DNA of 64,000 nucleotides, taken from Opitutia bacterium (lineage in GTDB: Bacteria; Verrucomicrobiota; Verrucomicrobiia; Opitutales; Opitutaceae). Below the pieces are notes generated by a model, which saw only the letters and a program-made list of their open reading frames with translations, had not been told where the DNA came from and did not search any database. Below are positions 39,445 to 64,000 of the stretch, piece by piece. The stretch lies in contig PLOH01000072.1 in NCBI GenBank assembly GCA_003142955.1, positions 16,539 to 80,538 on the forward strand, read 5' to 3'. A program made the translations under genes and the position numbers. Every line of letters begins with the position of its first letter. Within the stretch, counting starts at the first letter, position 1.

Positions 39445-39461
39445 ACCAATCCTTCTTGAAA

Positions 39462-41559: not shown

Positions 41560-41654
41560 TCTCATCCCGGGCGCGCCAGCTCGGCTCCGGCCCAAGAAGA
41601 ATCATTGCCAGCAATCCCCGCCCGCGAGACATTGATTGCCGTCGCTAGCCACTC

Positions 41655-42728: not shown

Positions 42729-42734
42729 CCTGCC

Positions 42735-43937: not shown

Positions 43938-44049
43938 CGGCAGGCTGGGTGGGCGCCATGGGCCTGGCCGCGCCGCCGGTGTTTCGGGCGGGAGGGGAGC
44001 TTGGTTTCGAACTCGTCTTGGAGGCGGTTCTCTCCTTGTCTGGAGTGGC

Positions 44050-47647: not shown

Positions 47648-47695
47648 ACCCGAGGAGTTTTCTCAAGATCCCCCCGCCGCCCGTCCATTCGTCTT

Positions 47696-48784: not shown

Positions 48785-48823
48785 ATTTCCGCCGCGCCGC
48801 CGCAGCCTGCCGCTCGATTCTCC

Positions 48824-49753
48824 ATGAAAAAGATCTCCGTAGTCAGCGGATGCTACAATGAGGAGGCCAACCTTGAGGAACTCGTGGGGCGCGTGTTGGC
48901 GGTCGCCGCAAAATACCCGACGTACGAATGGGAGCATATCATCATCGACAATTGTTCCACCGACCGCTCGGCGGACGTGCTGCGCAGCCTGGCCGGGTGC
49001 GACCGGCGCATCAAAGTGATCTTCAATGTCCGCAACTTTGGCCACATCCGGTCGCCGTATCATGCCATGCTGCAGGCGCACGGCGATGCGGTGATCTACC
49101 TGGCCTCGGACCTCCAAGATCCCCCCGAGCTCATCGAGCAGTTCATTCCCAAGTGGGAGGAGGGCTGGAAGGTCGTGGCCGCGATCAAAGATCACAGCGA
49201 GGAATCCTCGTTGTTCTTCCTGGTCCGGAGCGCCTACTACCGGCTCATTGCCCTCCTGGCGGAGACGGAGCTGTTGAAGAACTTCACCGGATTTGGCCTC
49301 TACGACCAGGCGGTCATCGAGCACCTGCGCGCCTTCGATGACCCCTATCCCTATCACCGTGGCCAGATCTCCGAACTGGGCTATCCCGTGGCGCGCGTCG
49401 CCTTCACCCAGCCGCAGCGCAAACGCGGTGTCACGAAGAGCAATTTCTTCACGCTGTATGACCTGGCGATGCTCGGTTTCACCAACCACTCCAAGGTCCC
49501 GCTGCGACTGGCCACCTTCCTGGGTTTCGCCTGCGCGCTGCTCTCGTTTTTGGCCGGCTCGGTCTACCTGGTGCTCAAGCTCCTGTTCTGGCGGGAGTTT
49601 CCCATCGGGCAGGCTCCGGTTGTGGTCGGGCTCTTTTTTCTGGGATCGGTGCAGTTGCTGTTCATCGGCGTCCTCGGTGAATACATCGGCGCGATCTATA
49701 CCAAGGTCTCCAAGCGCCCCTTGGTGGTGGAGCGCGAGCGGATCAATTTCTGA
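48824..49753 (+). CDS. GT2 polyprenyl-phosphate glycosyltransferase, copy 3
   Basis: KISVVSGCYNEEANL, IYLASDLQDPPE, two C-terminal TM helices. Confidence 0.88.
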   Translation: MKKISVVSGCYNEEANLEELVGRVLAVAAKYPTYEWEHIIIDNCSTDRSADVLRSLAGCDRRIKVIFNVRNFGHIRSPYHAMLQAHGDAVIYLASDLQDPPELIEQFIPKWEEGWKVVAAIKDHSEESSLFFLVRSAYYRLIALLAETELLKNFTGFGLYDQAVIEHLRAFDDPYPYHRGQISELGYPVARVAFTQPQRKRGVTKSNFFTLYDLAMLGFTNHSKVPLRLATFLGFACALLSFLAGSVYLVLKLLFWREFPIGQAPVVVGLFFLGSVQLLFIGVLGEYIGAIYTKVSKRPLVVERERINF

Positions 49754-49852: not shown

Positions 49853-51433
49853 ATGAGCCTATTCTCACTCGGAAAGACCAATCCCGCGACTGAGACCAGC
49901 CGGCTTCGTCTCTCGGTTTCGCTCACCCTGGTGTTTCTGGTCCTGGCTGGAATTGGCGCCTGGCGGCATGAACTCTGGCGGGATGAGATGCAGGCGTGGC
50001 TCAACGTCCGGGATGCGCCGAACCTCTCGGCGTTGCTCGAGGAGGTTCACTACAACGGGGCGCCCTCCCTTTGGTACTTGTTGTTGCGACCGCTGGCGCT
50101 GCTGACCTTCCGGCCGGAGGCGATGCAGATCCTGACGTGGATTCTCGCGGGCGCCACGGTTTTCGTCTTCGTGCATTTCGCTCCGTTCAACCGTCTGCAA
50201 AAGGCGCTGCTCGTCTGCAACTATTACCTCTTGTTCGAGTACGGGATTGTCTGCCGGAACTACCTGCCCGGGATCCTGGGCCTGGGCATCGCCTGCGTAC
50301 TCTTTCCGCGGGCGGAAGAACGGCCCTGGCCGTTCATTGCCGCGCTCCTTGCCGCCGCCTTGGCCAGTGTCCACAGCCTGATCGTGGCCGTGGCGCTGGC
50401 CGGCGGATTCTGGGCGCCCCGCTGTTTTCGCTGGGGCCCGCCGAAGGACGCCGGCGCCGGTTCCGCCCGCTTTCAGGCAGGGCCGCTGCTCTGCTTCGCA
50501 GGCGGGCTTGCCTATGCGGTCTATTCGATGCTCCCGCGGGCCGACACCCTCTACCCGCAGACGGACGGGTGGATCCTGGATTGGGTTCCGATCCGGCTTG
50601 CGAGAGTGGCCTCGGCCGTCGTCAATTCGTGTTTCACCTGGCCTCGGCCGGCGGGGTTTTCCCGGATCCCTCCGTGGGACACTCCGACGTTTTCCATTGA
50701 GAACGGGCAGATCTTCATCTGGGCGCTGCTGCTTTTTGTGCTGTCCGTCCTCTTCTTCAAACGTCATGCGGGGGCATTGGTTCTCTATGTCGTGGGAACG
50801 GTCGGCGTCGCTGCTTTCTTCTATGTCAAATACATCGGCGCCGCGCGGCACGCGGGCTTGCTGTTCTTCACGTTTTTATTCGCCCAGTGGATCAAACAGG
50901 CGTCGCGGCCCCGGCCTTCCCCCGGTTCATCCGCGGTGTTCGACCGGTGGGCCTCTGTGGTGCTCACAGCGATGCTGGCGGCCCAGGCGGTGACCGGGGT
51001 CTGGGCGCTGAAGGAGGATTTCAACCAGCGGTTTTCCTGTGGAAAGGCGGCGGCGCAGATTCTGCAGGAGCGCCACCTCGACCGCGGGTTCATCGCGGTC
51101 GCTCCGGACTGGGCGGGTGCCCCGCTGGCGGGATATCTGAATCGCTCGCTCTACTATCCCAACGCGCGAGGGTATGGTCGCGCCACCCACTGGGACAAAC
51201 GGCGGACCGAGTTCCTGGAGGACGATGAGATTATGCGCCGAACCATCGAGGAGGCCAATGGCCAGGCCTTCGTCATTTCGTTCGAGCATCCATTGGCGAA
51301 AGAGTTCACCGAAAAATACGGCTTGGAAACGGTGGCCGACGTGGTTGGGTCCATGACGCCGTTCGAAGACTACCACCTCTTCTACCGGCCGGGGAAGGCG
51401 GCAGCAGGCGCGAGTCCGGAGTCGACGCATTGA
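49853..51433 (+). CDS. polytopic membrane protein, GT-C-like glycosyltransferase candidate
   Basis: 526 aa, more than 10 TM helices. Acidic first-loop motif WRHELWRDEMQAWL. Soluble C-terminal approx 130 aa. Follows a polyprenyl-P GT2. Confidence 0.7.
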   Translation: MSLFSLGKTNPATETSRLRLSVSLTLVFLVLAGIGAWRHELWRDEMQAWLNVRDAPNLSALLEEVHYNGAPSLWYLLLRPLALLTFRPEAMQILTWILAGATVFVFVHFAPFNRLQKALLVCNYYLLFEYGIVCRNYLPGILGLGIACVLFPRAEERPWPFIAALLAAALASVHSLIVAVALAGGFWAPRCFRWGPPKDAGAGSARFQAGPLLCFAGGLAYAVYSMLPRADTLYPQTDGWILDWVPIRLARVASAVVNSCFTWPRPAGFSRIPPWDTPTFSIENGQIFIWALLLFVLSVLFFKRHAGALVLYVVGTVGVAAFFYVKYIGAARHAGLLFFTFLFAQWIKQASRPRPSPGSSAVFDRWASVVLTAMLAAQAVTGVWALKEDFNQRFSCGKAAAQILQERHLDRGFIAVAPDWAGAPLAGYLNRSLYYPNARGYGRATHWDKRRTEFLEDDEIMRRTIEEANGQAFVISFEHPLAKEFTEKYGLETVADVVGSMTPFEDYHLFYRPGKAAAGASPESTH

Positions 51434-51506: not shown

Positions 51507-53468
51507 TCATCTGGGCAGCTCAGTGCGGCCGTCCAGCACCGCGGCATCCGCCCAATCTGCCTGATCCCAACCAACCCCGTCACCAGCGTCCCCGACCGCG
51601 AGCTTAAGCTCAGTCACTCCGGTGACGTCAATCTTGAGCTTTTCAATCGGGGTTCCCCATAGCATCACCGGCGTCTGGTGGCGCAGTTGCCCGTCCGTAT
51701 AAACGGAGAAGATCACGCTGCCTGGCTGGCCATGGGCATTGTCGTCAAGTCCGACGTCCGCGGTAAACCATTTGTAGTGTCCGCCAAGGGAGAAGGTGAT
51801 CTCCGAGATCGCGTGGGTCCCGATCCCGCGCCGATAGGTGACCCCTTGGAGCCGGATCGGTTTGCCAACGATTGACTGGTCCCACTGGGGCGGGGCGCCA
51901 AGCGACTGCGTGGCGCGTAACGGGTTGTCATCACTCAAATAGTGCGAGGTCTCCTCCGCTCGCCTCGGTTTCAGCTGGTAGATCATCGGGGTCGACTCGG
52001 GCGCGGGAAGCATGGTCACCAGCTTGAGTCTCCGCCGATCCACCATGGGGAAGTTCCCCTGGAAGGCGGGCCAGATCGTGTGCACGAGCAGGAAGTCGCC
52101 TGGTTGAGCCCGGTCCCAGAAATTGATATCGGCCAGCGTGCCGAATCCCGGGCGCCCGGCGTGCTGGTGGACCGGGTCGGCAAAGGCGTAGGCAAAGCGC
52201 AGGTCGAGTTCATTCTGGGTCGAGGCGTCGACCCACAGATGGGCGTCGTGATGGTGCTGCAGCCAGTCGACCACCGCCGGCATGTAGTCCCGGCCGTCCA
52301 CATATTCACGGTGATTGGCCATCGCGACGCGCACGAGCATGATTGCCATCACCGCCATCAATCCAGCGATGACACCCTTCAGAATCCGGGAACGCGCCGC
52401 CAGGATCCACTCTCCGGCGAAGGCGATCACGGTGGCCGTCGGCACACTGATCAAGGCGAAGTACCGCGGTTCCTTGTGGTAGGGCAGGTAAGCCTGCCAG
52501 TTCATGCTGCCGAACTCGATCCAGAGCAAAACGCCGAGCACAAAGCAGGCCGCCGGCCGGCCGCGATTGCCGGCGAAGAAACAAAACGGAAGGGAGGCGA
52601 TGAGCAGCCACATGTACGGGCCGTAATAGGGATAGTGATTCGGGTAAGGCCCGAAGCCCGTTGTCTCAGTGCGAAGGCCCAGAAACACCTGGGGCAGGTA
52701 ACGAAAGCTCGTCGATACGTCGCCGACGCCTTCCCCTTTGTCCGCCTGCACCTTGAACCAGACGATCGAGGTATGAAAGCGGGCGAGCCAGTCACCGGTG
52801 AGATGCTTCAGCACCGCCGCGTCGACCAGCATGACCGTGAAAAACCCCAGCCCGACGATGGCATATTCCCAGGGGAACCGGCGCTCAAAAATCATGTCCG
52901 TCAGGGCCACCAAGAAGATCCCCCAGGCGAAGATGAAGCCCCATTCCTTGGTGATCGCGGAGAATCCCCAGATCAATCCGGCGGTCGCCCCGAGGATCAG
53001 CCGCCGCGCCCCGACCGCCTGGCGGAACAGAAGAAGCGTCAGGAGCAACGCGCCGCCATAAAACGACATCTCAATGTCCCCCCGGATGGTCGAAGACACC
53101 ATCCAGTCGATTGGATTCAGCACCAGGGCCGCGCAGCCGACTGCCGCGGCGCCGATGGACAGGCCCAACGTCCGGATCGAGGCATAAGCCAGCGGGACTG
53201 CGGCCAGTCCGTAGAGAAACGGGGGCAACAACGCGCTCCAATAGGAGACGCCGAAGACTTTTAGCGACAGCGCGATGGGGCCCCACATCCCGAACCGGAT
53301 CCCCCACATCGAATGGAGCAGCTCATAGTTATTGTCATTAAAAAAATTCCTTATATAGAATAGATAGACCCAGTCGTCGTGACCGTACAATCCTGAGAAC
53401 AACGTCAGCCGCAAGGCGGCCGCGAGGAGCAGGAAGGTGACGGGGACCAGGATCTCTTTCCTGTGCAT
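51507..53468 (-). CDS. GT-C (GT39/ArnT-PMT-like) membrane glycosyltransferase fused to a C-terminal NPCBM carbohydrate-binding module
   Basis: N-terminal approx 500 aa is polytopic, with GLYGHDDWVYLF in the first loop. The C-terminal approx 150 aa (DNA approx 51507-51960) reads YLSD..GIGTHAISEITFSLGGHYKWFTADVGLDD...GSVIFSVYTDG...LKLAVGDAGDGVGWDQADWADAAVL, the NPCBM/NEW2 pattern. Confidence 0.8.
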   Translation of the reverse strand: MHRKEILVPVTFLLLAAALRLTLFSGLYGHDDWVYLFYIRNFFNDNNYELLHSMWGIRFGMWGPIALSLKVFGVSYWSALLPPFLYGLAAVPLAYASIRTLGLSIGAAAVGCAALVLNPIDWMVSSTIRGDIEMSFYGGALLLTLLLFRQAVGARRLILGATAGLIWGFSAITKEWGFIFAWGIFLVALTDMIFERRFPWEYAIVGLGFFTVMLVDAAVLKHLTGDWLARFHTSIVWFKVQADKGEGVGDVSTSFRYLPQVFLGLRTETTGFGPYPNHYPYYGPYMWLLIASLPFCFFAGNRGRPAACFVLGVLLWIEFGSMNWQAYLPYHKEPRYFALISVPTATVIAFAGEWILAARSRILKGVIAGLMAVMAIMLVRVAMANHREYVDGRDYMPAVVDWLQHHHDAHLWVDASTQNELDLRFAYAFADPVHQHAGRPGFGTLADINFWDRAQPGDFLLVHTIWPAFQGNFPMVDRRRLKLVTMLPAPESTPMIYQLKPRRAEETSHYLSDDNPLRATQSLGAPPQWDQSIVGKPIRLQGVTYRRGIGTHAISEITFSLGGHYKWFTADVGLDDNAHGQPGSVIFSVYTDGQLRHQTPVMLWGTPIEKLKIDVTGVTELKLAVGDAGDGVGWDQADWADAAVLDGRTELPR

Positions 53469-53488
53469 GGCGGCGAAAGCGATGCGGG

Positions 53489-56032
53489 CTATTTGCTACG
53501 CAGAAGCTTGGCCCCAGCCCAGTCCGCATGATCGCAGTGAATGCCGTCCCCGGCATCGGTCACGACCAGCTTCAGCGTGGTGACATCGGAAACGTCGATC
53601 TTGATGCTATCCGGGGGATCACCGGCCCGCATTACTTTAGATTCGTAGACTTTGCGATCGTCGACCCAAACCTCGAAGACCACGGTTCCGATTCCGCCCA
53701 GTTGGGTGTCGTCCACTCCGAGATCCGATTCAAAAACCGCATAGTGACGGTCGAGGTTGAACGTGATCTCCGAGGGAGCATGGGTGCCCAAGCCGAATGG
53801 ATAGGTCTGCTTCGCTAGGCTTAAGGTCGTTAGGTCGAAAGATTTGTCGATCTTGAGGGTGCCATAACCCTGTTGCACCGAGGTGGGACTTAGCTCGCTT
53901 AGCCAGACGGCAGGCCGGGAGGTTTCAACTTCCCGGTCTCGCCGAATGGCCTCGGCGCTTTGTTCACCCACTTCGTAGATAGAGTAACGGACTCCGAGGC
54001 AGTCTTGGTCGAAGGAAGTCTTGAACCGGCGTCCCATGGTGGCGCGATCCACATGATAGAGTCCCTCTTCCGCCGGGCCGACGAAGATATGCGTGACTTT
54101 GCATTTTGTGATCAAGGCAGGGTCGGCCTCCCGGTAGGCCCGGGCGACCAGCGCTTCCGTCGCCTCGTCGCCAAACCCCGTTTCGCGGGTATAGGACCCA
54201 TTGACCACCCGCCGGCCAGCGAAGGCTGGAACAAGGTGCACGGTCGAGTTGGCGGTCAGGAACACCGCGTCTTTTTGCGTGTTGAGCCTGATCCACTCGG
54301 CCACCAGTCGGTCGCCGGCGCTGAACAGCCGCTCCGGTTCCCGTCCGTACCGCCCGATCCACTCGCTGGCCGTCGGAACGACCGCACCAACGGAGACGAG
54401 CAGGCCTGCGACAATCCTCCATGATCGGGACCCCTGCCAAAGAAACGCCAGAAGACGGCCGCTGTAGATGCAGAGCGCGAGATCGAAATAGAGAAAGAAC
54501 TTGTTACTGTCTCCCCAGTTCGGGGTGAACCGGTAGACATTGATTACCAGGAAAAAGAAGCCCGTCACCCCCAACAGGGCAAGCAGGGCGATTTCTCCCC
54601 GCCGGCCCGATTTGGCCTCGCGCGGCGGCAGACGGAAGGAAATGAGCACCGCGATCAGTCCGAGGACCAGCGGAACGCCGCCCGCCCGGACCCAAAACCA
54701 GCACCGTTGAAGATGCAGAAAGCGGGGGATTTCCGGCAGGGCCCCGAGTTGTTTTGCGACGTCGAACCCGGAGAATCCGCGAGTCTTTTCCTGGGAAAGA
54801 ATAAAGCCGAGCTGCAACCCGACCACCACCCCGGCGAGAAGCATCGCGATAATCTTGAGCGGCGCATGGGACGGGGGAAACTCACTCCCGGAAGGAAGCG
54901 GCTTTTCCGCCGAGGCGGGTTTGGCAGCCGAGGGGAGGGGAGTGCCATCGCTGATGGTCATGCGGATGAGGCGGGCGACAAACCCGTCGCGCCCGGTTGC
55001 CGCCCGCCAGGGTGGTGCGGGTTCGAACAGCACCACCAATCCGACCAGCGGACCGATGGTGAGGAAAGTGTGCATATGAAACAGAGGGAGAAACGCCACC
55101 ACGCCCAAGAGGAGGTAGGTGGTTCGATCCGTCGGCGTCTGTCCGCTAAACCGCCGGTAGAGGACGGTGAGCACGAGCATCGCCAGGGGAAACCCGAAGA
55201 GAAACGGAAGTTGCGGCTGGAAATAATCGATGACGACGTTCAGGAAATTGTAGTAGGGATAGGCGATGTGATCGGCGAAGCTGCTCCAGGAATGGAGCGA
55301 CAGCGGCACGCTTCCGACGGGATAGCCAGCGAGGCTGAAAAGAAGATTCACCACGCCGACATGGCCGAAGAAAAAAAGCAGACCGGCGAACGTCGTTGCG
55401 GTCCGGCTCTTCAGCACGGAGAAGAGCCCATGGAAGGTCAGCGAGCACAGCGCGAAGGCCAACAGCACCATGGGGATCTTGAAGGCATAGAAGAGAGAAA
55501 AGCCTCCCCGGCACAGGATGGCCGAAAAGAAATCAGCCATGAAGTGGTAGCTGAGCTTGGCGGCCGCGGATTGCGGATTGAGCGGCGGGAAAGTGGTTTG
55601 TTCCAGAAACGCCGAGGCCGTGCTCATATGAAAGGCGAGGTCCCGGGTATTGCCGCGAAACCAGATGTTGCCGTCGGGGTCCGTCCACACGCAGACGGCG
55701 AAATAGGCCGTGATCAAAACGGTGGGGACAACGCTGGCCTTCCAGAATTTCCGGTCAAAGACGAGCAGCGAGGCGAACCAGCGGGCGTTCCGTTGTCTGA
55801 AGCGATACGCCAGGGCATTGAGGGCGAGCATCAAGGCGGTGCCGATGGCCACCGTGTCGACGCTGAAGCCGAAGGCCCAGGCCAGCAGGAACACAATCCA
55901 AGAGCCCCAGAAGCAGCCGAGCACAATTGCGGCGCCTAGGCGCACCAGAAAATCGCCCTGACTCAGGGAGAATTCTTCGTCGGTGACGAAACCGAACCAT
56001 ATCACGGAGAGCAAGAATATGGCACTAAGCAT
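53489..56032 (-). CDS. large GT-C-superfamily-like membrane protein (DUF2298/YYY-like loop) fused to a C-terminal NPCBM module
   Basis: 847 aa. Loop FPPLNPQSAAAKLSYHFMADF. The C-terminus (DNA approx 53489-53950) reads WLSEL..GLGTHAPSEITFNLDRHYAVFESDLGVDD...GTVVFEVWVDD...LKLVVTDAGDGIHCDHADWAGAKLL. Confidence 0.75.
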   Translation of the reverse strand: MLSAIFLLSVIWFGFVTDEEFSLSQGDFLVRLGAAIVLGCFWGSWIVFLLAWAFGFSVDTVAIGTALMLALNALAYRFRQRNARWFASLLVFDRKFWKASVVPTVLITAYFAVCVWTDPDGNIWFRGNTRDLAFHMSTASAFLEQTTFPPLNPQSAAAKLSYHFMADFFSAILCRGGFSLFYAFKIPMVLLAFALCSLTFHGLFSVLKSRTATTFAGLLFFFGHVGVVNLLFSLAGYPVGSVPLSLHSWSSFADHIAYPYYNFLNVVIDYFQPQLPFLFGFPLAMLVLTVLYRRFSGQTPTDRTTYLLLGVVAFLPLFHMHTFLTIGPLVGLVVLFEPAPPWRAATGRDGFVARLIRMTISDGTPLPSAAKPASAEKPLPSGSEFPPSHAPLKIIAMLLAGVVVGLQLGFILSQEKTRGFSGFDVAKQLGALPEIPRFLHLQRCWFWVRAGGVPLVLGLIAVLISFRLPPREAKSGRRGEIALLALLGVTGFFFLVINVYRFTPNWGDSNKFFLYFDLALCIYSGRLLAFLWQGSRSWRIVAGLLVSVGAVVPTASEWIGRYGREPERLFSAGDRLVAEWIRLNTQKDAVFLTANSTVHLVPAFAGRRVVNGSYTRETGFGDEATEALVARAYREADPALITKCKVTHIFVGPAEEGLYHVDRATMGRRFKTSFDQDCLGVRYSIYEVGEQSAEAIRRDREVETSRPAVWLSELSPTSVQQGYGTLKIDKSFDLTTLSLAKQTYPFGLGTHAPSEITFNLDRHYAVFESDLGVDDTQLGGIGTVVFEVWVDDRKVYESKVMRAGDPPDSIKIDVSDVTTLKLVVTDAGDGIHCDHADWAGAKLLRSK

Positions 56033-56131
56033 GAGTTTTCCTGTGGCTTAAGGTGAGAGGAGGAGAAAGGGCTGGGAATGCGCGGTGGGAGTCTTTTGGC
56101 CGATCATGATCAACGGAAGCTCGCGGCAGGC

Positions 56132-57760
56132 TTATTGGCTCATGCGAAACAAGGTCGCCTTCGAGCGCGGGCCGGCAAACTCGGCGACCCGTTCCCATTT
56201 CTCAGGAGTATAGCGGGATTCCAGAATGTTGATGCACATCGGGGTGATCAGAATCAGGTCTCCCGGCTTGGCCTGATCCAGGAAGATAACCTCCTGGATG
56301 GCGCCGTATCTCGGCATGCCGCGATCCTGGTGCGCGGGATCCGCAAATCGATAGCCAAACCGCAAGTCGAGATCCTGTTGGATGGAGCCGGTGGCCCACA
56401 TCCGCGTTTCCGGATGGGCTTTCAGCCAGAGGGTGAGCTCAGGCAGGAAATCCCGTCCGTCACTATAAATGAGATGCTCAGAATGCAGGACGAACCCGAT
56501 GCTGCCGGCCAAGGCGAGTAGCGCACCGGCGAGCAACGCCCGGCCCCGCGGTCGAAGCCGTTGCCACATGAAATCCAGCAGCCACCCGATGAGGCAGGCA
56601 ATGGGAACGCTTAAGATGGTCAGATAACGCGGTTCCTTATGATACGGGATATAGATGCTCGTGCTCATCGAACCGAACTCGATCCACAGCAGGGTTCCGA
56701 TGACGAAGAAAAGAAGGCTGGACCAGGCCGATCTTCGCCCCCAGAGGTGCTGCCAGATCCCCCAACCTAGGGCTCCCAAAAACAGGTAGAAGTACCAACC
56801 AAAGATCGGATATCCGTTCGCGAAGCGTTGATTTGCGGAGAGATTGTTTGAAAGGTTGAGGAAAAGGCTCGGCAGATAGCCGTAGCTGAGGCTGAGGTCG
56901 TTGGCATAGCCTCCCGTCAGGCGAGCGCGTTCAAACCACCCGATGGACTGCTGAAGACGTTGCTGGAAAACGCCGGTGGTGAGATACAAGAAGAAACCGT
57001 CTGCGGCCAGCACCGCCAAAAAACCCAGGAACACCCAGGCATAGACCCAGGGAATCCTGCGCTCACGCAGACACAGCCAGAGAATGACCGTGAGGAATCC
57101 CCAGGCATAGACGTAGGCCCATTCCTTGTTCAGCGCACCCAGGCCCCAGGCGATACCGGTCGCGCCAGCCAGTAGGACCCGGCGGACGGATTTCGACGGC
57201 GGGGTAGTCTCGATCAGGACCAGGCCCAAGACCACCAACCCCCCGTAACAGGACATCTCGATATCTCCGCGAATCGTGGTGGATACAAACCAGTCGATCG
57301 GGTTGATGGCCAGGGCCAAGGTAGCCCAGCGGGCGACGCGAGTCTCCCGACTGATCCGGAAGGCGATCCCGTAGGCCAACGGAATGGAGGCCAATCCCAT
57401 GATGAAGCCGGGGGCGAAGGCCAGCCAGTAATGAACGCCAAAGAGCTTGAACAGGATCGCGATCGGCAGCCAGACCCCCCACCGCAGGCCCCAGAGGCTG
57501 CTGAGAAGATCTTGAGTCGATCCGTTAAGAAAATTCCGGATGTGAAAAAGATACATCCAGTCGTCATGGCCATGAAGTCCGTTGAAGATCCAAAGGCGCA
57601 ACGCACAACTCAAGGCGACGACCGCCAGCAGCCACGCCACGGTGGAGGCTTGCGGCGGAGCTTGAGGAGCGGCGTTTGCGCCACGGGCGCCGCGCCGTTC
57701 GACCTTGGGCCCCGCTGAGGCTGGGATGGGTTTTGGATCCACAGGAACGCTGGTTACCAT
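56132..57760 (-). CDS. GT-C (GT39-like) membrane glycosyltransferase, paralog of 51507..53468 without NPCBM
   Basis: An internal ATG (MVTSVPVD...) is chosen because the 57898 start would overlap the upstream gene by 62 nt. Colinear similarity to the 51507 protein: LRLWIFNGLHGHDDWMYLFHIRNF vs LRLTLFSGLYGHDDWVYLFYIRNF; INPIDWFVSTTIRGDIEMS vs LNPIDWMVSSTIRGDIEMS. Confidence 0.78.
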   Translation of the reverse strand: MVTSVPVDPKPIPASAGPKVERRGARGANAAPQAPPQASTVAWLLAVVALSCALRLWIFNGLHGHDDWMYLFHIRNFLNGSTQDLLSSLWGLRWGVWLPIAILFKLFGVHYWLAFAPGFIMGLASIPLAYGIAFRISRETRVARWATLALAINPIDWFVSTTIRGDIEMSCYGGLVVLGLVLIETTPPSKSVRRVLLAGATGIAWGLGALNKEWAYVYAWGFLTVILWLCLRERRIPWVYAWVFLGFLAVLAADGFFLYLTTGVFQQRLQQSIGWFERARLTGGYANDLSLSYGYLPSLFLNLSNNLSANQRFANGYPIFGWYFYLFLGALGWGIWQHLWGRRSAWSSLLFFVIGTLLWIEFGSMSTSIYIPYHKEPRYLTILSVPIACLIGWLLDFMWQRLRPRGRALLAGALLALAGSIGFVLHSEHLIYSDGRDFLPELTLWLKAHPETRMWATGSIQQDLDLRFGYRFADPAHQDRGMPRYGAIQEVIFLDQAKPGDLILITPMCINILESRYTPEKWERVAEFAGPRSKATLFRMSQ

Positions 57761-57836
57761 TGTCTCCCTCTGCAGACGTCCGCCGCACCTCGCAAGTGGC
57801 TGGCGAAGGAGATCGCATGCGTTCGCAAATCGGTGG

Positions 57837-59948
57837 TCACTTCGAGGACGGTTTGCCAAGGAGGTAACCGGGCAGGTCCAGCGCATCGAGCGCCGCATGA
57901 CGATCGTCCGTCCACACCACGGTTTCGCCCGGCGGCCGCGGATCGAAAAGGTTCACGGTGCGCTTCAGCCGGCCCTCGTCTTCCTCGGCAGGCAACCAGG
58001 CGAGGACTTGGCTGAGCTGCGCGGGGCGGAAAGCCAGGATGTATTTCGTATCCACGAAGTCCCAATCGCTGGTTTCCGAATGGGTCGTCACCTCCAGGCT
58101 GGACCAGCCCAGCGCCTGCGCCGTCGCGCCGACAATCGGGAACACGGTGCCATAGCGATTGGTCGAGTGGACCACGAGCACTCCTTCCCGTTTCTGCAGC
58201 CGCGCAAAGTAGATCGCCAGGGCCTCGCGAGTGAGCAGGTGGGCGGGCATTGCGTCGCCGGAGAGGGCATCGAGGACAATCACGTCGTAGTTGGTGGGCG
58301 ACGCTTCAAGCCCTTTGCGGCCGTCCGCCTGCTTGATGTGGATCCGTCCTGGTGAATCCGAAACAAAGCTGAAGAAATCACGCGCGATGCGTTCGGATTG
58401 CGGATCGATGTCCCAGAAATCGAACGTGTCGGCCGGGCGAGCGTAGGCGGCCAGGGTTCCGGCGCCAAGACCGATGACGCCGATCGTGACGGCGGGATTC
58501 GCCTTTTGCGTCTCCGCAATCACGCGGCCCACACCAGAGCTGGGCGTATAATAGAGCGTGGGATGTCGGCGGGTTTCTCGGCTCGTCGTGATCTGCGTGC
58601 CATGAGTGGTGGTTTCATTTGCAAGGACCAGTCCGTCTTCCACGGATTTCAACATCGTATACCCATAGATGTTCCGGAAGCGCCGAATGCGGGTGGCTCC
58701 GATGGCTTCATCGCGGGTCTGCTGCAAGACCAGCCCCGCCACCGGCGCGGATATAATTAAAATTGCCACTGCGACCGTCAAGACGTCGCGGCGGGCGAGC
58801 AGCCGTACAAGCCCCAGAATCAGCAGCAGACATGAAACGGCGAGAAACTCGGAGGGACGCAGGAAGAAAAACGGCGCGCCCAGGCTGGCGAAGAGCCCGC
58901 CGGCAATACCGCCGGTGGCCAGCGCGACATAGAAGAAACCAAACCGTTCTTTGGGCCGGCGCTCGTAGAGGAGTCCGTTGCCGAAAAAACTCCCGGCCGC
59001 CGTCGTCGACATCAGCCAAAAGGCGGCCCAGCCGTTCACCGTTGCGCCGCTGACCCCCTTGGTGAGCATGAATCCCGTCAGGCTGAGCGCCAGCCAGCCG
59101 AGGCAGGCGAGGGTATAGCGCGGTTGCCACCAACCGGAAAAGGTCACAAGGAAACTCAGAAGGTAAACGCCGAAGGGCCCGACCCACGCGGTCGGATTTG
59201 AGCCGATCTCAGCCGCGAGATGATGCGTCGCTCCGAGCATGCCGAGACAGGTGAGCGCACTGAGGCCGAGCCATGCCGTGGTGCGGGAGTAGGGAATGGT
59301 TTCCGGTGCGTCGTTCGGAGCGGCCACAGATAGGCCGACGCGCAGGTAACACAAAGCCGCAATGGCTGTCAGGCAGGCCGTGACAAAAAGGAGGCCGTGC
59401 CAGATGAACATCTGGTCGGAAAGACCGATCACCCGCTCGATCGTGAACGGGTAGAGCACGACCGCGGCAAGACCGCCGGCATTGGAGCCCGCGTAGAGAT
59501 GGTAGGGCACCGGCTGGCCGCGCCGTCGCAGCCAGCCATGCATCAACGGGCCGATGCTGAATAACAGGACCATTGCGGGCAGGGTCGCGAGGGCGAGCGT
59601 GAGCAGAATCCCCCAATAGCCGGTCCAATCGCCCTCCAAGACCCAACGCAGACGGCTGACAGTCACAGCGATCAAGGCGAGCCCGCCCATGGCAGCCACT
59701 TGGAAATGGACGGGGCGACGAAGCAGCCACAAGGCCCAGCCATATCCAAGGAGCAACGTGGTCTGGAAGTAGAGCATGGTGCCCAGCCACGCCGGCGCAG
59801 TTCCCCCTTGGACGGGCAGCAGCAACTTTCCCACGAGAGGTTGAACGGAAAAGGCCAGGAAGGAAGCCAGCGGAACGGCCATGATCACTGCACCAAACAA
59901 TAGTCTTGAGAGCTTCGCCGGGGGAATTCGGAGAGAAGGGAGGCGCAT
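57837..59948 (-). CDS. polytopic membrane domain fused to a spermidine-synthase-like SAM-fold domain
   Basis: 703 aa. N-terminal approx 430 aa has about 11-12 TM helices. C-terminal VIGLGAGTLAAY...FWDIDPQSERIARDFF...YDVIVLDALSGDAMPAHLLT is an aminopropyl/methyltransferase fold. Confidence 0.8.
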   Translation of the reverse strand: MRLPSLRIPPAKLSRLLFGAVIMAVPLASFLAFSVQPLVGKLLLPVQGGTAPAWLGTMLYFQTTLLLGYGWALWLLRRPVHFQVAAMGGLALIAVTVSRLRWVLEGDWTGYWGILLTLALATLPAMVLLFSIGPLMHGWLRRRGQPVPYHLYAGSNAGGLAAVVLYPFTIERVIGLSDQMFIWHGLLFVTACLTAIAALCYLRVGLSVAAPNDAPETIPYSRTTAWLGLSALTCLGMLGATHHLAAEIGSNPTAWVGPFGVYLLSFLVTFSGWWQPRYTLACLGWLALSLTGFMLTKGVSGATVNGWAAFWLMSTTAAGSFFGNGLLYERRPKERFGFFYVALATGGIAGGLFASLGAPFFFLRPSEFLAVSCLLLILGLVRLLARRDVLTVAVAILIISAPVAGLVLQQTRDEAIGATRIRRFRNIYGYTMLKSVEDGLVLANETTTHGTQITTSRETRRHPTLYYTPSSGVGRVIAETQKANPAVTIGVIGLGAGTLAAYARPADTFDFWDIDPQSERIARDFFSFVSDSPGRIHIKQADGRKGLEASPTNYDVIVLDALSGDAMPAHLLTREALAIYFARLQKREGVLVVHSTNRYGTVFPIVGATAQALGWSSLEVTTHSETSDWDFVDTKYILAFRPAQLSQVLAWLPAEEDEGRLKRTVNLFDPRPPGETVVWTDDRHAALDALDLPGYLLGKPSSK

Positions 59949-59970
59949 AAAGGAATTGAGAGACGAATCG

Positions 59971-61113
59971 TCAATCCCGTCGGAGCGACGCGAGGGCCGA
60001 GCGCAGCGGGGACGCCATGATCGACGGGTAGGCTTCGCAGGGCGTCCAGCAATTTGGGCATTGCCCAGCGGCGACCGCGCGACGCACCCCGTCCCGGCGA
60101 GACTTCTCGATGATCGGCATCAGCGCATAGCCGGTATCGCGGATGTTTCCCAGGGGTTTGTCCCAAATGGTGCAAGGATAGACCTGGCCGGTTTCTGAAA
60201 GATAGGCGGTCGAGAGCAGCGCCGAACAGACGATCCGGGTCCGCCCGGTCGCGAGGTAGCGTGCGGCCTCGGCCCGATAGACCCGCTCGATGGCACGCAT
60301 CGCGACGGACGATCCCGTCGTGGACTTGACGGTCGCGACGCGGAGGGCCGCGGCGATCTCCTTCCGGTGCGCTTCGCCACCGAATCCGTCGGCCCCTTGG
60401 CTGGCAGGGTTGCCATAGAAGTGTGGCGATAAATGGGGAATATTGAGATGGAGCGTCGCCCGGGTGATCGCGGACTGCTTGCGCTGACCGAGGGCGGTGT
60501 TGACCGCGGCAAATGTGTCCTCGACGAGCTCGGTCGTCGTGCGGCCGCAGGACGCCTTGTGCCCGTGCAAGGTCATGCCGATGTACGCATTCTCGGCGCC
60601 AATCTCCGTCCGCACCGCAGCAAACGTGTCGATGGCATGGGCGAAATCGTTGCGGACCCCACGGAGGCGGTCATTAAGGTCGGGCGGGCCGTCAATCGAG
60701 ACGGAGACGATCAGCCGGGCTCGCACGGTCCGTCGAAGCTGCCCCACCGCCTCGCAAAGGCGCGCCGTCGCCAGGCCGTTGGTCGGAAAGTGAATCAACA
60801 GGAGTTCGGGGCAGACTTCGGCGAAAGCCTGGATGACCTGGACGAAATCGGGGCGGTCGGTGGGTTCGCCGCCGGTGAAGTCGATCCACTGGAGAAATGG
60901 ATTCGCGGCGGCGATGGCTTTCACTTCGTCCAGCGTAAGCTCGCGGTCGAGCCCACCCGGCGTGTCTTTCACCTTCCAGATGTCGCAGTACGTGCAGCGG
61001 GAGTAACAGCGCTTGGTCACCACAAACGTCAATTTCGTCGGGGGACCTTCGATCCCCGCGGCGGCGGCGAGAATTCGGCCGGTGAAACGGCTCCATGAAT
61101 ACAATCGGCTCAT
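59971..61113 (-). CDS. radical SAM protein with SPASM/twitch-like C-terminal Cys cluster
   Basis: CX3CX2C motif VVTKRCYSRCTYCDIW, GGEPT. C-terminal cysteines IVCSAL...VYPCTIW...GQCPNCWTPCEAY. The ATGA start overlaps the stop of the upstream GT-C gene. Confidence 0.85.
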   Translation of the reverse strand: MSRLYSWSRFTGRILAAAAGIEGPPTKLTFVVTKRCYSRCTYCDIWKVKDTPGGLDRELTLDEVKAIAAANPFLQWIDFTGGEPTDRPDFVQVIQAFAEVCPELLLIHFPTNGLATARLCEAVGQLRRTVRARLIVSVSIDGPPDLNDRLRGVRNDFAHAIDTFAAVRTEIGAENAYIGMTLHGHKASCGRTTTELVEDTFAAVNTALGQRKQSAITRATLHLNIPHLSPHFYGNPASQGADGFGGEAHRKEIAAALRVATVKSTTGSSVAMRAIERVYRAEAARYLATGRTRIVCSALLSTAYLSETGQVYPCTIWDKPLGNIRDTGYALMPIIEKSRRDGVRRAVAAGQCPNCWTPCEAYPSIMASPLRSALASLRRD

Positions 61114-63014
61114 CGCGTGGTCTGGCCGTTTGGAACGATCGCGGCTCCGGTTGATCCCGGCCTCTGTTCGGTCGCCCCGGTCTTGCCGGCGAGCGCGTCG
61201 GCCACGACATCATCCAAGTCGATCTTCGGCTTGTCCGGCCGGTAATGACCGCCCATGACTGCGCGCGCGTAGGGCGTATCAAGGCGAAACAAGGCTAACT
61301 TGACCGCCTCGGCGTTCATCCTGCTGACTACCGTGGCGTGCGTATCGACGACGAGTTGGCGCCATGGTTTGGCGAACCGGTCTTCTGCATTCACCCAGTA
61401 GTCCCAATGGAGATAGATGCCTCCGGGATACTGCCGCGTCATCTCAAGCATCTCCGTGCGCACCATATCTTCCACGTTGGAAATCTGCGAAGCATTTCGC
61501 CCGAGCATGTTCCAAATGCAGGGGTCGGTCGAGATGACCAGCGAGCCCCGCGGCAGTTTTGCGGCCGCCTCGCGGCAAAAATCAATGTCGGCCCTGGCCT
61601 CGTTCGCTTCGCGCCCAAGGGTTGGAACAAACCGCAGGGCGGTTACCCAGTTCATCGCAACGACTACGCCCAATGCTCCCAGCAGGAGTGGTTGGCGGCG
61701 GAGCAACGCATAGATGGCCGCCGCCCCAATCCCCATCAACAGGGCCACGGGGGCGGCTGACACGACGGCATAGCGCGAGCTGGCCCCGTAATAATAGCCG
61801 CCGGCATAAAACAGTACAAAGATGCCCCACGAGAGGAGGGACCAGAGCATTGCCCCCCATCCAAATTTCCGATTGGCAATGGCCAGCCAGGCAATGCCCG
61901 CAACGGCCAGGAACGTGCCGGCCAGCGGAAACCACTTCCCCTGCACAAAGTAGCCGGCGTTGCTTTCCAGGTTCTTCGCCAAGAAGGCGAAGTCGAAGCG
62001 GCGCCCGTCGGAGGCGCCCCAGTCTTCCGTGCGGACAGACCATAGTTGGAGTAGATTCGGCGTAATCAGGGCCAGGGAAAGGGCCAGCGCAGCCCAGGTG
62101 ACGCGGTCTTCGAGAAACCGCCGGTCCGCCGCGAGGAGCAGGCAGGCGGCGACCGGATAAACGAGCAGCGACTCCGGTCGAAAATAGGCGGCAAACGCGG
62201 CGGCTGCCGCCAGACAGGCCGCGGTCATTGGAGAGCCTTCGCCGGTCTTCGGATCGCGCCACCGCGCATGCAGGCACACGGCGAGAAACGTGACCGCCGT
62301 AGCCGCAGCCGCTGTCGATTCAACCGCCACGGTGCGGCTCCACCACAGGACTAGCGGCGTGAAGGTATAGCAGAGCGCCACCGCGATGGGGGTTCGCGAC
62401 GGAAGGGTCCATGGCGCCAACACCAGCGCGAAATAGAGCAGAGCAACCGTGATCGCAACCGCCGCTCTCACGGTCGCCTCCGCCACGCTCTCCGTCGCTC
62501 CGAACAAACGGAACGCCCATGACAGCACATAAGGGTGCCCGATCGGCTGTTTGTTCACCACGGCACTGAAGACCACGAAATCCCCGTATTCGGCTTTGGC
62601 GTAGTTCGCATACTCGGCCCGCCCCGTGTGCGCGAGCGTTTGACCGATCTGCATATAGATATGCTCGTCATAGAAGATACGGTTCGTTTGCGGCGCGAGC
62701 CCGCACACCAGAAAAGCCAGCACCGCCAGACTGAAACCGGTGACGAGATGCTTGCAGCCAAGCGCGCGCGCCAGCGGAGCGGCGAACCCGGCGAAGCCAG
62801 CCAGGCCAACGGCCACGCAGAAGTTCATGCCCCACACCGTCGAGACGGACGCAATGGCCCGTTGCTCGTCCATTGAGTGCTCGAAAAGAATCCGGTAAGC
62901 CCAGGAAACCGCCACCGCCAGCGCCGCCAGGCCCAGCCCAAACCACACCGGTCGCAGCAAGCGATGCGGCGGCGGCAACTCCGATTGATTGGGATCCTCC
63001 AATGCAGTGTCCAT
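61110..63014 (-). CDS. GT-C (ArnT/PMT-like) membrane glycosyltransferase
   Basis: Internal ATG (63012-63014) giving MDTALEDPNQSEL. First-loop acidic motif NRIFYDEHIYMQIGQTLAHTG. More than 10 TM helices. Soluble C-terminal approx 200 aa. The start shares one nucleotide with the carbamoyltransferase stop. Confidence 0.78.
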   Translation of the reverse strand: MDTALEDPNQSELPPPHRLLRPVWFGLGLAALAVAVSWAYRILFEHSMDEQRAIASVSTVWGMNFCVAVGLAGFAGFAAPLARALGCKHLVTGFSLAVLAFLVCGLAPQTNRIFYDEHIYMQIGQTLAHTGRAEYANYAKAEYGDFVVFSAVVNKQPIGHPYVLSWAFRLFGATESVAEATVRAAVAITVALLYFALVLAPWTLPSRTPIAVALCYTFTPLVLWWSRTVAVESTAAAATAVTFLAVCLHARWRDPKTGEGSPMTAACLAAAAAFAAYFRPESLLVYPVAACLLLAADRRFLEDRVTWAALALSLALITPNLLQLWSVRTEDWGASDGRRFDFAFLAKNLESNAGYFVQGKWFPLAGTFLAVAGIAWLAIANRKFGWGAMLWSLLSWGIFVLFYAGGYYYGASSRYAVVSAAPVALLMGIGAAAIYALLRRQPLLLGALGVVVAMNWVTALRFVPTLGREANEARADIDFCREAAAKLPRGSLVISTDPCIWNMLGRNASQISNVEDMVRTEMLEMTRQYPGGIYLHWDYWVNAEDRFAKPWRQLVVDTHATVVSRMNAEAVKLALFRLDTPYARAVMGGHYRPDKPKIDLDDVVADALAGKTGATEQRPGSTGAAIVPNGQTTR

Positions 63015-64000
63015 TAGGTTCGTGCGATTTGGCGGTTGCTGGGACTGGTCTTCGTCAACAAAGCCGAGCCGAGAGCAAGGTGCTGTACGCCACTCTCCAT
63101 CCACGCCTCGATGATGCCTGCGGCATCGTCGGACATCGGCTTGCCGTGCAGATTGAGGCTGGTGTTGATCACCGCGCCGGTGCCGGTGAGCGCCTTGACC
63201 TGCGCCAGAAAGCGATACCATGGGTCGGCGGTGTTCTCTACCACCATCTGTGGCCGGCACGAGCCGTCAGGGCCGATCGCTCCTGCGAGGGCAGCCCGGC
63301 CGCGCGGCGTGGTGAGAAATCCCATGGTCATGTGCAGGTTGGCGTCGCGCGGGCCGCGGTAATCCGCGAGCAGCTCGGACGCCTCGGAGAGCAGAATCGT
63401 CGGACAGAACGGCTGGAACCAGACCCGGCGCTTGAGTCGCAGATTCAGATCGTCCCGGGCGGCGATGCTGTCGGCCCGGGCCACGATGCTGCGGGCGCCG
63501 AGCGCGCGCGGACCCAGTTCCATCCGGCCTTGGGCCCACATCACGATATCGCCGGCCGCCACGCGCTCGGCGACCTCTGTGGCGATGTCAGCCGGGCGCT
63601 GACAGGCGGCGCCGGTGGCATTGGCCACAGCCTCGGCGCCCTTGCCAAGGTCGCCATGATCGATTCCGAGGCGGAAATCGGCAAAGGGTTGCGGGCGCTG
63701 GCCGGTCAATCGATGCCACACCATGAGTGCCGCGCCCAAGCCGAGGCCGCCGTCGCCCATTGCGGGGCAGACTTCGAGCCGCTCGATGCCGGGCGTGGAC
63801 CTCACCAGCCGGTTCACCTTGATGTTGGAAGCCACGCCGCCCGCGTAGCCAAAGGAAGCGATGCCCGTCGCCTCGACAAGCTGCGCAAAGAACCGTGGGA
63901 CGAAATGCTCCAGCGTTTGCTGCGCCATGCGGCAGACCTGTTCGCGCGGTGTGCTCCAGACGACGGCCGCAACTGCAGCGGCCATCCGGGCCGGAGCGAT
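63014..64000 (-). CDS. carbamoyltransferase (NodU/CmcH family), C-terminal part; the gene continues beyond the right edge
   Basis: GYAGGVASNIKVN, GDGGLGLGAALMVW, RVWFQPFCPTIL, HMTMGF, VINTSLNLHGKP. The frame is open to position 64000 and the family is about 570-600 aa long. Confidence 0.85.
   Translation of the reverse strand: MAPARMAAAVAAVVWSTPREQVCRMAQQTLEHFVPRFFAQLVEATGIASFGYAGGVASNIKVNRLVRSTPGIERLEVCPAMGDGGLGLGAALMVWHRLTGQRPQPFADFRLGIDHGDLGKGAEAVANATGAACQRPADIATEVAERVAAGDIVMWAQGRMELGPRALGARSIVARADSIAARDDLNLRLKRRVWFQPFCPTILLSEASELLADYRGPRDANLHMTMGFLTTPRGRAALAGAIGPDGSCRPQMVVENTADPWYRFLAQVKALTGTGAVINTSLNLHGKPMSDDAAGIIEAWMESGVQHLALGSALLTKTSPSNRQIART

Follow-up and report, generated by a model that had tools for sequence, protein, structure and literature searches.

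A glycosyltransferase, carbamoyltransferase and radical SAM gene cassette beside prepilin-like genes in Opitutales: a candidate protein O-glycosylation system

In Actinobacteria and streptococci, proteins are known to be O-glycosylated outside the cytoplasm from lipid-phosphate monosaccharides. The Ppm1/DPM1 and Pmt (GT39) systems of Actinobacteria and eukaryotes are marked by an acidic D-E motif in the first extracytoplasmic loop and by Ser/Thr-rich acceptors. Here we describe a locus that resembles these systems in outline. It reaches into the end of a stretch of 64,000 nucleotides (the window) from a contig of a metagenome-assembled genome (MAG) of Opitutales (Verrucomicrobiota), and it encodes a glycosyltransferase of family 2 (GT2), an O-carbamoyltransferase, a membrane glycosyltransferase of the GT-C type (GT-C_A), a radical S-adenosylmethionine (SAM) enzyme and a fusion of a major facilitator superfamily (MFS) fold with a spermidine synthase (SpdS) fold. 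Loci are labelled L001 and so on, L001 being the same contig extending past the window end.

The closest analogue is the pgf operon of Streptococcus mutans, in which the genes of the Ser/Thr-rich adhesins stand alongside those of the enzymes that glycosylate them extracellularly, a GT-A enzyme, an epimerase and two GT-Cs (PMC12041528). The Pgf proteins (PgfS, PgfE, PgfM1 and PgfM2), with GtrB/PgtC2, have in common with the layout predicted here a lipid-phosphate sugar, a tailoring enzyme, an extracytoplasmic GT-C acting on Ser/Thr tracts and acceptor genes nearby (PMC12041528). Our locus differs in that it occurs in Gram-negative lineages, in that its GT-Cs are of the PMT_2 and not the YfhO type, in that tailoring would fall to a carbamoyltransferase and a radical SAM enzyme in place of an epimerase, and in that the candidate acceptors are of prepilin or TadE type. 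Protein O-mannosylation, the work of a PMT-family GT-C with a polyprenyl/dolichyl-phosphate sugar synthase (PMC12705809), shares this pair of enzyme types, and both GT-C_A and a second membrane protein of the window, GT-C_D, match PMT_2. The proteins described here differ in having no MIR domain, in the C-terminal CBM51-like NPCBM domains of two accessory proteins and in a predicted carbamoylated, further modified sugar.

Three-component systems (Gtr, ArnC/ArnD/ArnT, PpgS/Rv3779 and the pentofuranose systems of PMC11127046) likewise pair a synthase of a lipid-phosphate sugar with a GT-C, and the donor is modified before it is exported. In contrast to these, the cassettes described here have other tailoring enzymes, an MFS domain fused to a SAM-dependent enzyme in Opitutales only, no identified GtrA, SMR or MATE flippase, and, as the likely acceptor, a protein and not lipopolysaccharide (LPS) or arabinogalactan. 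TfpW of Pseudomonas aeruginosa draws on polyprenyl-phosphate-linked donors. This GT-C is reported to arabinosylate type IV pilin in the periplasm (bioRxiv 10.1101/2020.04.19.049825), which is the likeness to the step predicted for GT-C_A. TfpW acts on the major pilin with D-Araf oligomers obtained via DprE1/E2-type epimerization, whereas the candidate acceptors here are pilin-like proteins of large size whose repeats are mucin-like, and the predicted sugar chemistry is another one.

The overall logic, the GT2 plus GT-C scheme, is already known; of interest are the conserved cassette, the unusual tailoring enzymes and the mucin-like candidate acceptors of pilin type. An earlier note on this DNA had recognized no characterized pathway in the genes; we too found no match, but they do fit the known scheme, with the Pgf operon as a close analogue. 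Our literature search found no functional study of this gene combination, of fused MFS/spermidine synthases or of NPCBM-GT-C fusions.

A conserved unit that begins outside the window

The conserved unit consists of the genes for GT2, the carbamoyltransferase, the GT-C and the radical SAM enzyme, plus the fusion in Opitutales, and it begins outside the window (Table 1). We surveyed one genome per species, scanning with an alignment of the radical SAM protein and then searching by tblastn with all proteins of the window; presence was counted over 55 Opitutales loci, the denominator for each gene being the loci with enough flank. In about 50 Opitutales species the locus comprises a prepilin-like gene, a second prepilin-like gene with Thr/Ser repeats, and genes for a ~700-aa protein, GT2, the carbamoyltransferase, a PMT_2 GT-C, the radical SAM enzyme and the fusion; those from the ~700-aa protein to the fusion are colinear across the species representatives. 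In typical loci the core genes overlap by 4 nucleotides (nt), the operon stops after the fusion gene, and convergent Ham1, RibD and Lactamase_B genes come next. An identical copy of the radical SAM protein is also encoded on metagenome contigs as long as 251 kb, and its close homologues (62 to 84% identical) belong to Opitutaceae/Opitutales MAGs. Past the window end, the source contig completes the carbamoyltransferase gene; ahead of it come a spacer of 355 nt, the GT2 gene and a gene for a 704-aa protein in which no Pfam family was detected. A kinship of this protein with a 700-aa TadG-like protein of L089 was discarded: BLAST shows no similarity between them, and a PilX/TadG-like N-terminus is visible only by eye.

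Within the window, seven tightly packed minus-strand genes had been proposed as one operon. All seven open reading frames (ORFs) are present, independent gene calling on the same contig returns the same genes, and the junctions are as described: a 1-nt overlap (63014), a 4-nt overlap (61110-61113) and gaps of 22, 76, 99 and 20 nt. The gene caller starts the fusion further downstream; homologues of 700 to 708 aa, whose N-termini align upstream of that 681-aa start, support the 703-aa form, and the 22-nt gap therefore holds. No promoter-like or terminator-like site was seen in the 76- and 99-nt gaps by a consensus scan that we judged uninformative. What did not hold is the treatment of the seven genes as one conserved pathway unit: four belong to the core and three to an island described below, and the unit as drawn leaves out the first conserved genes and the likely acceptors, which lie past the window end. 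In the gene-neighborhood comparison that the earlier note had advised, the radical SAM and fused SpeE-like genes are conserved together in Opitutales and the NPCBM-bearing genes occur in few relatives.

Outside Opitutales, GT2, the carbamoyltransferase, GT-C_A and the radical SAM enzyme are encoded together in Lysobacteraceae, Dadabacteria, Bdellovibrionales, Oligoflexia, a Verrucomicrobiae contig and several unclassified MAGs. In these distant cassettes GT2 is 51 to 57% identical, the carbamoyltransferase ~40%, GT-C_A 31 to 36% and the radical SAM enzyme 39 to 43%, and none has the MFS/SpdS-fold fusion. Their genes vary in order and orientation and their flanks are unrelated; that the linkage is retained despite the shuffled order argues for a functional coupling of the four core genes. 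The tightest pair is GT2 and the radical SAM enzyme, which are adjacent or divergent in every lineage.

Table 1. Location of the genes, domains and loci discussed, with the number of Opitutales loci that carry each gene
Feature	Location	Strand	Size	Opitutales loci	Remarks
Window
Carbamoyltransferase, window part	63014-64000	-	C-terminal 328 of 626 aa	39/41	Adjoins radical SAM gene
GT-C_A	61110-63014	-	634 aa	46/47	
Radical SAM enzyme	59971-61113	-	380 aa		
MFS/SpdS-fold fusion	57837-59948	-	703 aa	44/46	Gene caller start 59882 (681 aa)
MFS-fold N-terminal domain	58698-59948	-			Candidate flippase for lipid-linked sugar
SpdS-fold C-terminal domain	57837-58697	-			Probable SAM-dependent methyltransferase
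GT-C_B	56132-57760	-	542 aa	5/33 (B/D type)	
847-aa protein	53489-56032	-	847 aa	6/40 (>=50% identity)	
NPCBM of 847-aa protein	53504-53908				C-terminal
GT-C_D	51507-53468	-	653 aa	5/33 (B/D type)	
NPCBM of GT-C_D	51537-51947				C-terminal
526-aa polytopic protein	49853-51433	+	526 aa		Convergent with the operon; possible GT-C by motif only
Nucleotide-sugar operon	37523-49753	+			CDP-glucose to 3,6-dideoxyhexose (RfbF, RfbG, RfbH, E3-like reductase)
PgfS/ArnC-like GT2	48824-49753	+			Two C-terminal transmembrane helices
TPP enzyme, cyclase, NeuB-like set	43798-48784				
GT2 (island)	36266-37210	-			
NAD-dependent epimerase/dehydratase	35160-36173	+			
GT2 (island)	33432-34385	+			
Lactamase_B, RibD, Ham1	30642-33172	+			
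tRNA-Gly (CCC)	26130-26203				
L001 (same contig)
Prepilin-like gene 1	128-772		214 aa		AGFTLVE; Pfam N_methyl
Prepilin-like gene 2	787 to ~2640		~600 aa		Starts RGFTLVEIL; ends in ~200 aa of (S/G)TTT(A/K)G repeats
~700-aa protein			704 aa	28/31	
GT2 (outside window)	5023-5865		280 aa	39/41	Polyprenyl-phosphate type
Spacer	5866-6219		355 nt		
Inverted repeats in spacer	6051-6071, 6155-6175		21 nt		Imperfect; ~83 nt apart
Carbamoyltransferase, full gene	6220-8100		626 aa		O-carbamoyltransferase (NodU/CmcH type); core member
Other loci
Locus with shortened core	L009 7781-13300				One Opitutae MAG
GT2 + radical SAM loci	L065 5986-10978, L088 5085-10047, L095 7896-11047				Bacteriovoracaceae, Peredibacter and one other lineage
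Radical SAM homologue with DegT aminotransferase	L094 3632-11086				
PhyH dioxygenase and SDR	L059 8210-9998				Before the Lysobacteraceae cassette
Secreted protein beside GT-C_A	L062 2004-2852, L089 15750-16439, L093 4654-5535		~230-290 aa		

Several loci show variants of this arrangement. The 355-nt spacer between GT2 and the carbamoyltransferase is specific to the lineage of the source MAG, the two genes overlapping in other Opitutales; it holds a pair of inverted repeats, of which no further copy was found in the window. The spacer could be a small element inserted here or a hairpin with a regulatory role, and it could split the transcription of GT2 from that of the window genes. In L009 the prepilin-like, radical SAM and fusion genes are kept and the GT2, carbamoyltransferase and GT-C_A genes between them are absent, an apparent deletion or rearrangement. 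L065, L088 and L095 keep only GT2 and the radical SAM gene; in L065 and L088 two extra radical SAM genes (666 and 396 aa) precede the pair, with no carbamoyltransferase or PMT_2 gene adjacent, and loci of this type may represent a different pathway built on the same pair. In L094 the radical SAM homologue stands with a DegT aminotransferase, a PMT_2 protein, a second radical SAM/SPASM gene, a TPR protein and a PhyH dioxygenase, and a PhyH dioxygenase also precedes the Lysobacteraceae cassette, there with a short-chain dehydrogenase/reductase (SDR). A secreted protein that looks, from its sequence, like a beta-sandwich with a CARDB-like pattern adjoins GT-C_A in three distant lineages. Its copies in L062 and L089 are 26% identical (E value 2e-6), that in L093 is similar only by eye, and no counterpart was identified in Opitutales.

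Predicted activities and candidate acceptors

GT2 is classed as a sugar synthase of the polyprenyl-phosphate type because its nearest relatives are AglJ (136 bits), Dol-P-hexose transferase (76) and PpgS (76) among NCBIfam models, all below the equivalog cut-offs, and ArnC (1.8e-11) and DPMS (dolichol-phosphate mannose synthase) among solved structures. A DAD motif can be read in its sequence, and it has no transmembrane (TM) segment. The window part of the carbamoyltransferase matches Carbam_trans_C (144 bits) and Carbam_trans_N (27 bits) of Pfam, and the full-length protein reaches 43 bits with Carbam_trans_N (cut-off 24) and 142 with Carbam_trans_C (cut-off 27). It stays below the NodU equivalog (85 against 1000) and has no TM segment. 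GT-C_A, with about 10 hydrophobic segments, scores 36.5 bits with PMT_2 (cut-off 26.1), and P-x-T-N-R-I-[FY]-[FY]-D-E, a motif that follows a TM helix, shows no variation in 55 sequences from different phyla. By these features GT-C_A is classed as the transferase of the core cassette, of the GT-C type with an acidic D-E motif in a predicted extracytoplasmic loop. The PMT_2 match, the loop motif and the GT2 partner support the general idea of the earlier note, namely, glycosylation outside the cytoplasm from polyprenyl-phosphate donors with carbamoyl and SAM-dependent tailoring. Family scans agreed with the domain labels given previously to the carbamoyltransferase, GT-C_A, the Radical_SAM protein, the MFS/SpdS fusion and GT-C_D and did not support the GT-C label of the 847-aa protein.

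The radical SAM enzyme scores 49.5 bits with Radical_SAM of Pfam (cut-off 29.5) and has no TM segment. Invariant across phyla are C36xxxC40xxC43 and C296, C314, C352, C355 and C359, the five C-terminal cysteines being spaced CX17C and then CX2CX3C. The SPASM label given to the protein before falls slightly short of the Pfam cut-off (20.5 against 21.5 bits); many homologues have a precomputed PF13186 hit, and the C-terminal sequence suggests an auxiliary-cluster region of a partial SPASM/twitch-like kind. The family is large (207 clusters at 50% identity with E<=1e-30), and the protein reaches no NCBIfam family, the best being MoaA (39 bits) and HxsB (38 bits) against cut-offs of 284 to 370. 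Its closest solved relatives, SkfB (68 bits), MoaA, CteB and BlsE, do not fix the reaction, and a Foldseek search with a poor structural model places the enzyme only in the SPASM/twitch-type group, with BlsE, DesII and MoaA among the matches.

The fusion matches NF037959, the model for fused MFS/spermidine synthases (52.6 bits; cut-off 40), and its AlphaFold2 model (mean pLDDT 87) has 14 helices in residues 1 to 392. In Foldseek, the MFS-fold domain matches G6PT, NorA, FLVCR and VGLUT with target-normalized TM-scores of ~0.5, and the best matches of the SpdS-fold domain are the spermidine synthases 1jq3, 2o07 and 1iy9, the N-terminal beta-strand subdomain included. The Asp of the GGGDGG motif of spermidine synthases excludes the carboxylate of SAM and thereby selects decarboxylated SAM. 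The fusion has GLGAGT in place of GGGDGG; its Ala474 is nearly invariant in 36 homologues, and in an alignment with Plasmodium falciparum spermidine synthase an Ala stands opposite the Asp. METTL13, a SAM-using methyltransferase of the same fold, has GLGGGS at this position. The C-terminal fold is thus common to the fusion, the spermidine synthases and SpdS-fold methyltransferases such as METTL13 and plant putrescine N-methyltransferase, and the fusion differs from spermidine synthase in its Ala (METTL13, too, has a residue other than Asp) and in its MFS-fold membrane domain. With Ala in place of this selective Asp, the domain is more likely a methyltransferase; judged by its sequence, it is probably SAM dependent and not an aminopropyltransferase. 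Aminopropyl transfer, which had been suggested before, is unlikely, and spermidine synthase chemistry was rejected for the fusion on account of the Asp-to-Ala change throughout the family. The fusion also misses the NCBIfam cut-offs for aminopropyltransferases (NF003380, 33 against 304 bits; NF002956, 15 against 472). MFS lipid flippases exist, and by analogy we suggest, and only suggest, that the MFS domain flips a lipid-linked sugar.

Directly upstream of the ~700-aa protein, on the same contig and strand and tightly packed, lie two prepilin-like genes, the second ending in Thr-rich repeats (Table 1). In L001 a 100-N assembly gap falls within these repeats; complete copies of both genes are present in L002 and L005, and the number of repeats differs between the two, which suggests copy-number variation or assembly collapse. 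At a threshold of at least 60% Ser plus Thr in a 40-aa window, a Ser/Thr-rich ORF is found at this position and on this strand in all 22 Opitutales loci with enough upstream sequence. The prepilin motif G-[FM]-T-[LM]-x-E is present in 12 of the 22, and a variant, A-F-T-L-[VA]-E, is visible in at least 5 more. Distant cassettes adjoin Ser/Thr-rich proteins in 5 of 9 loci: one with a TadE-like N-terminus in L060 (Dadabacteria), two with TadE-like N-termini in L089, one with an N-terminus like a class III signal in L090, proteins with TadE/TadG-like and pilin-like N-termini in L093, and a giant poly-Ser protein in L091 whose N-terminus lies past the locus. The TadE-like protein beside the L060 radical SAM gene is homologous to one in L089. 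The scan of 17 unrelated control loci (285 kb), of the 64-kb window and of five GT2 plus radical SAM loci lacking an adjacent PMT_2-type GT-C found no Ser/Thr-rich ORF. For the counts of one scan, 4 of 8 distant loci against 0 of 17 controls, Fisher's exact test gives p ~0.006 by our own arithmetic.

Proposed pathway and alternative readings

We propose that the locus is a dedicated extracytoplasmic O-glycosylation system for mucin-like prepilin-type proteins, with unusual tailoring of the sugar, and we give this reading an even chance of being right. Our observations are the gene set and its synteny, the protein families and their conserved motifs, and the association of the cassette with Ser/Thr-rich pilin-like genes; from these we infer the acceptor, all substrates, the sequence of steps, the radical SAM chemistry and the role of the MFS domain in flipping. 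GT2 would charge polyprenyl phosphate with a sugar at the cytoplasmic face, and the carbamoyltransferase and the radical SAM enzyme would tailor that sugar in the cytoplasm; both are without TM segments and need cytoplasmic cofactors (ATP and carbamoyl phosphate for the one, SAM and a reductant for the other). In Opitutales the fusion would add a methyl group derived from SAM and may flip the lipid-linked sugar. In the periplasm, GT-C_A would then attach the sugar to Ser/Thr-rich repeats in the neighboring prepilin-like proteins. In this genome and a few relatives, the island would contribute two PMT-like GT-Cs, an unclassified polytopic protein and extra genes for sugar donors; its proteins might extend or densify the O-glycans via other lipid-linked donors, for example, those made by the PgfS-like GT2, with the CBM51-like domains binding glycan that is already attached.

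A wider version of this proposal is that several phyla carry unrecognized mucin-like O-glycosylated surface proteins of prepilin/TadE type, decorated by a portable four-gene cassette with a carbamoylated, radical-SAM-remodeled sugar whose donor is modified and flipped in Opitutales by the MFS/methyltransferase fusion. In this general form we put it forward tentatively and regard it as rather doubtful. If this version is true, no radical SAM enzyme before this one would have been shown to tailor a glycosyl donor linked to polyprenyl phosphate (or the immediate precursor of such a donor). The narrower proposal, if right, would itself extend the O-glycosylation scheme to Verrucomicrobia, Dadabacteria, Bdellovibrionota-type predators and others as a compact cassette with its likely acceptors alongside. 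It would also provide a functional context for three uncharacterized families, namely, that of the radical SAM enzyme, that of the fused MFS/spermidine synthases and that of the GT-C proteins with CBM51-like domains. The proposal predicts a glycan with an O-carbamoylated sugar that bears a further radical-mediated modification, and the cassette is small enough for heterologous reconstitution.

A number of points weigh against a protein O-glycosylation system. The association across phyla rests on the 5 of 9 distant loci; in L059 there is only a Pro/Thr-rich secreted protein below the threshold, and L061, L062 and L066, whose contigs are short, show no Ser/Thr-rich neighbor. The controls are unrelated loci from other taxa, and Ser/Thr-rich and pilin-like genes may be common in the genomes that carry the cassette. 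The synteny in Opitutales could be inherited gene order and not functional coupling. The PMT_2 family includes ArnT-type lipid A transferases, and membership in it does not by itself indicate a protein acceptor. No GtrA, SMR or MATE flippase was identified near the inspected cassettes, and the distant ones are without the MFS fusion. The AlphaFold2 model of the radical SAM enzyme, based on 21 close homologues, is poor (mean pLDDT 60), and the peptide maturases SkfB and CteB are its nearest solved relatives, which would fit another role.

The acceptor could instead belong to the envelope at large, the cassette being an Arn/Gtr/Flm-type module that places a carbamoylated sugar on lipid A, LPS core, O-antigen or another envelope polysaccharide, with the pilin-like neighbors a coincidence. 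Of the solved structures, ArnC is nearest to GT2, ArnT-like enzymes belong to PMT_2 as well, and the adjoining island has CDP-dideoxyhexose genes of O-antigen type. Several distant cassettes stand alone among housekeeping genes, as they would for a general envelope acceptor, and the hosts that can be named are all Gram-negative lineages save one MAG labelled archaeal. Nevertheless, no ArnA/B/D, WaaL, Wzx/Wzy or Wzm/Wzt was detected in the cassettes, and chance neighbors would have to account for Ser/Thr-rich prepilin-type genes adjacent in 22/22 Opitutales and 5/9 distant loci against 0/17 controls; we consider this explanation unlikely. Membership in an Arn, Gtr, O-antigen or capsule pathway proper was rejected, with no defining partner genes and no ArnA-, ArnB- or ArnD-type proteins in the cassette or its conserved neighbors. 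The kinship of the radical SAM/SPASM enzyme with the peptide-modifying SkfB and CteB, together with the five conserved C-terminal cysteines that suggest an auxiliary cluster, would also suit a maturase that acts on the pilin-like proteins or on an unannotated small peptide, with glycosylation by the GT-C as a separate step on the same protein. We find this improbable: GT2 is the tightest partner of the enzyme even in the Bacteriovoracaceae/Peredibacter loci that have neither a Ser/Thr-rich protein nor an adjacent GT-C, no recurring small precursor gene was seen in the inspected loci, and the sugar-modifying BlsE and DesII, as well as MoaA, are among the same fold matches.

The arrangement of the window genes on one strand with short gaps, and with no terminator-like site in the 76- and 99-nt gaps, is what a single co-transcribed pathway would look like in which four GT-Cs, together with the tailoring enzymes, work successively on a single product, and proteins like GT-C_B and GT-C_D and like the 847-aa protein do recur near some distant cassettes. 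We nonetheless give such a seven-gene pathway little credence, with the last three genes absent from most Opitutales loci, in which the operon ends after the fusion gene, and lying here within a ~24.6-kb insertion bounded by Ham1, and with the first conserved genes of the unit outside the window. The tailoring set also has a parallel in moenomycin biosynthesis, in which the carbamoyltransferase MoeM5 and the radical SAM methyltransferase MoeK5 act on a lipid-phospho-sugar, and the cassette might by this token make a free or secreted phosphoglycolipid with no acceptor on the cell surface. That is highly improbable, given that a PMT_2-type GT-C with a conserved, predicted periplasmic D-E motif is a core member, that the radical SAM enzyme matches no cobalamin-binding or class B methylase family, and that neither a prenyl-phosphoglycerate synthase nor further soluble glycosyltransferases are present.

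The accessory island

The core operon and Ham1 are separated in this genome by a glycan insertion of ~24.6 kb (33432-57760). Because Ham1, RibD and Lactamase_B normally follow the fusion gene directly, we regard the region from ~33.2 to 57.8 kb as a lineage-specific glycan island. It holds two GT2s, an epimerase, a CDP-sugar operon, the 526-aa membrane protein and the three membrane proteins downstream of the fusion gene. The convergent nucleotide-sugar operon with a polyprenyl-phosphate-type GT2 that the earlier note had placed next to the seven genes is indeed there, at 37.5-49.75 kb. Its sugar genes score above the NCBIfam cut-offs (RfbF 338 against 300, RfbG 453 against 278, RfbH 683 against 423, TIGR04425 417 against 400), and an SDR, a methyltransferase, an acetolactate-synthase-like thiamine pyrophosphate (TPP) enzyme, an AroB-related cyclase and a NeuB-like enzyme are also encoded. 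The last gene encodes a GT2 whose best NCBIfam match, PgfS (158 bits), is below the cut-off. By tblastn, this operon was not found beside the core cassette in other genomes.

GT-C_B is PMT-like without a lectin domain; it has no Pfam hit of its own and is 42% identical to GT-C_D over 447 aa, and the motif G-H-D-D-W after the first TM helix is invariant in the family of the two proteins. GT-C_D itself matches PMT_2 (30.8 bits; cut-off 26.1). Its NPCBM domain scores 143 bits and that of the 847-aa protein, which has ~13 hydrophobic segments, 152 bits (Pfam cut-off 23.9); the two domains are 42% identical, and the NPCBM profile matches the solved CBM51 domains 2vmg (4e-19) and 7js4 (2e-25). For the 847-aa protein, profile-profile comparison with GT-C_A gives a probability of 37%, one of its homologues hits Dpy19 at 8e-4, and there is a weak hit to DUF6798. 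The 526-aa protein has no match in Pfam, NCBIfam or PDB; H-E-x-W-R-D-E after its first TM helix is invariant in 5 homologues, and in L008, L043, L049 and L067 such homologues adjoin proteins of the 847-aa type. Profile-profile comparisons, profile searches of solved structures and Pfam/NCBIfam scans of the whole families gave nothing decisive on whether the 847-aa and 526-aa proteins are GT-Cs. PMT proteins like GT-C_B and GT-C_D adjoin the distant cassettes of L089 and L090, and relatives of the 847-aa protein without NPCBM are found beside the L062 cassette and in L031, L038 and L041. Their presence beside some distant cassettes fits one donor pathway serving several transferases.

Two observations concern the rest of the window. 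The set at 43798-48784, in which the AroB-related protein is a 'sugar phosphate phospholyase (cyclizing)' (TIGR04425) standing with the acetolactate-synthase-like and NeuB-like enzymes, presumably resembles branched-chain sugar (yersiniose-type) chemistry plus a carbocycle or nonulosonate-like branch; the TIGR04425 protein has an unassigned N-terminal extension of ~230 aa if its start lies just after the TPP gene. The tRNA-Gly gene is the sole RNA gene that Rfam and ARAGORN detected in the window.

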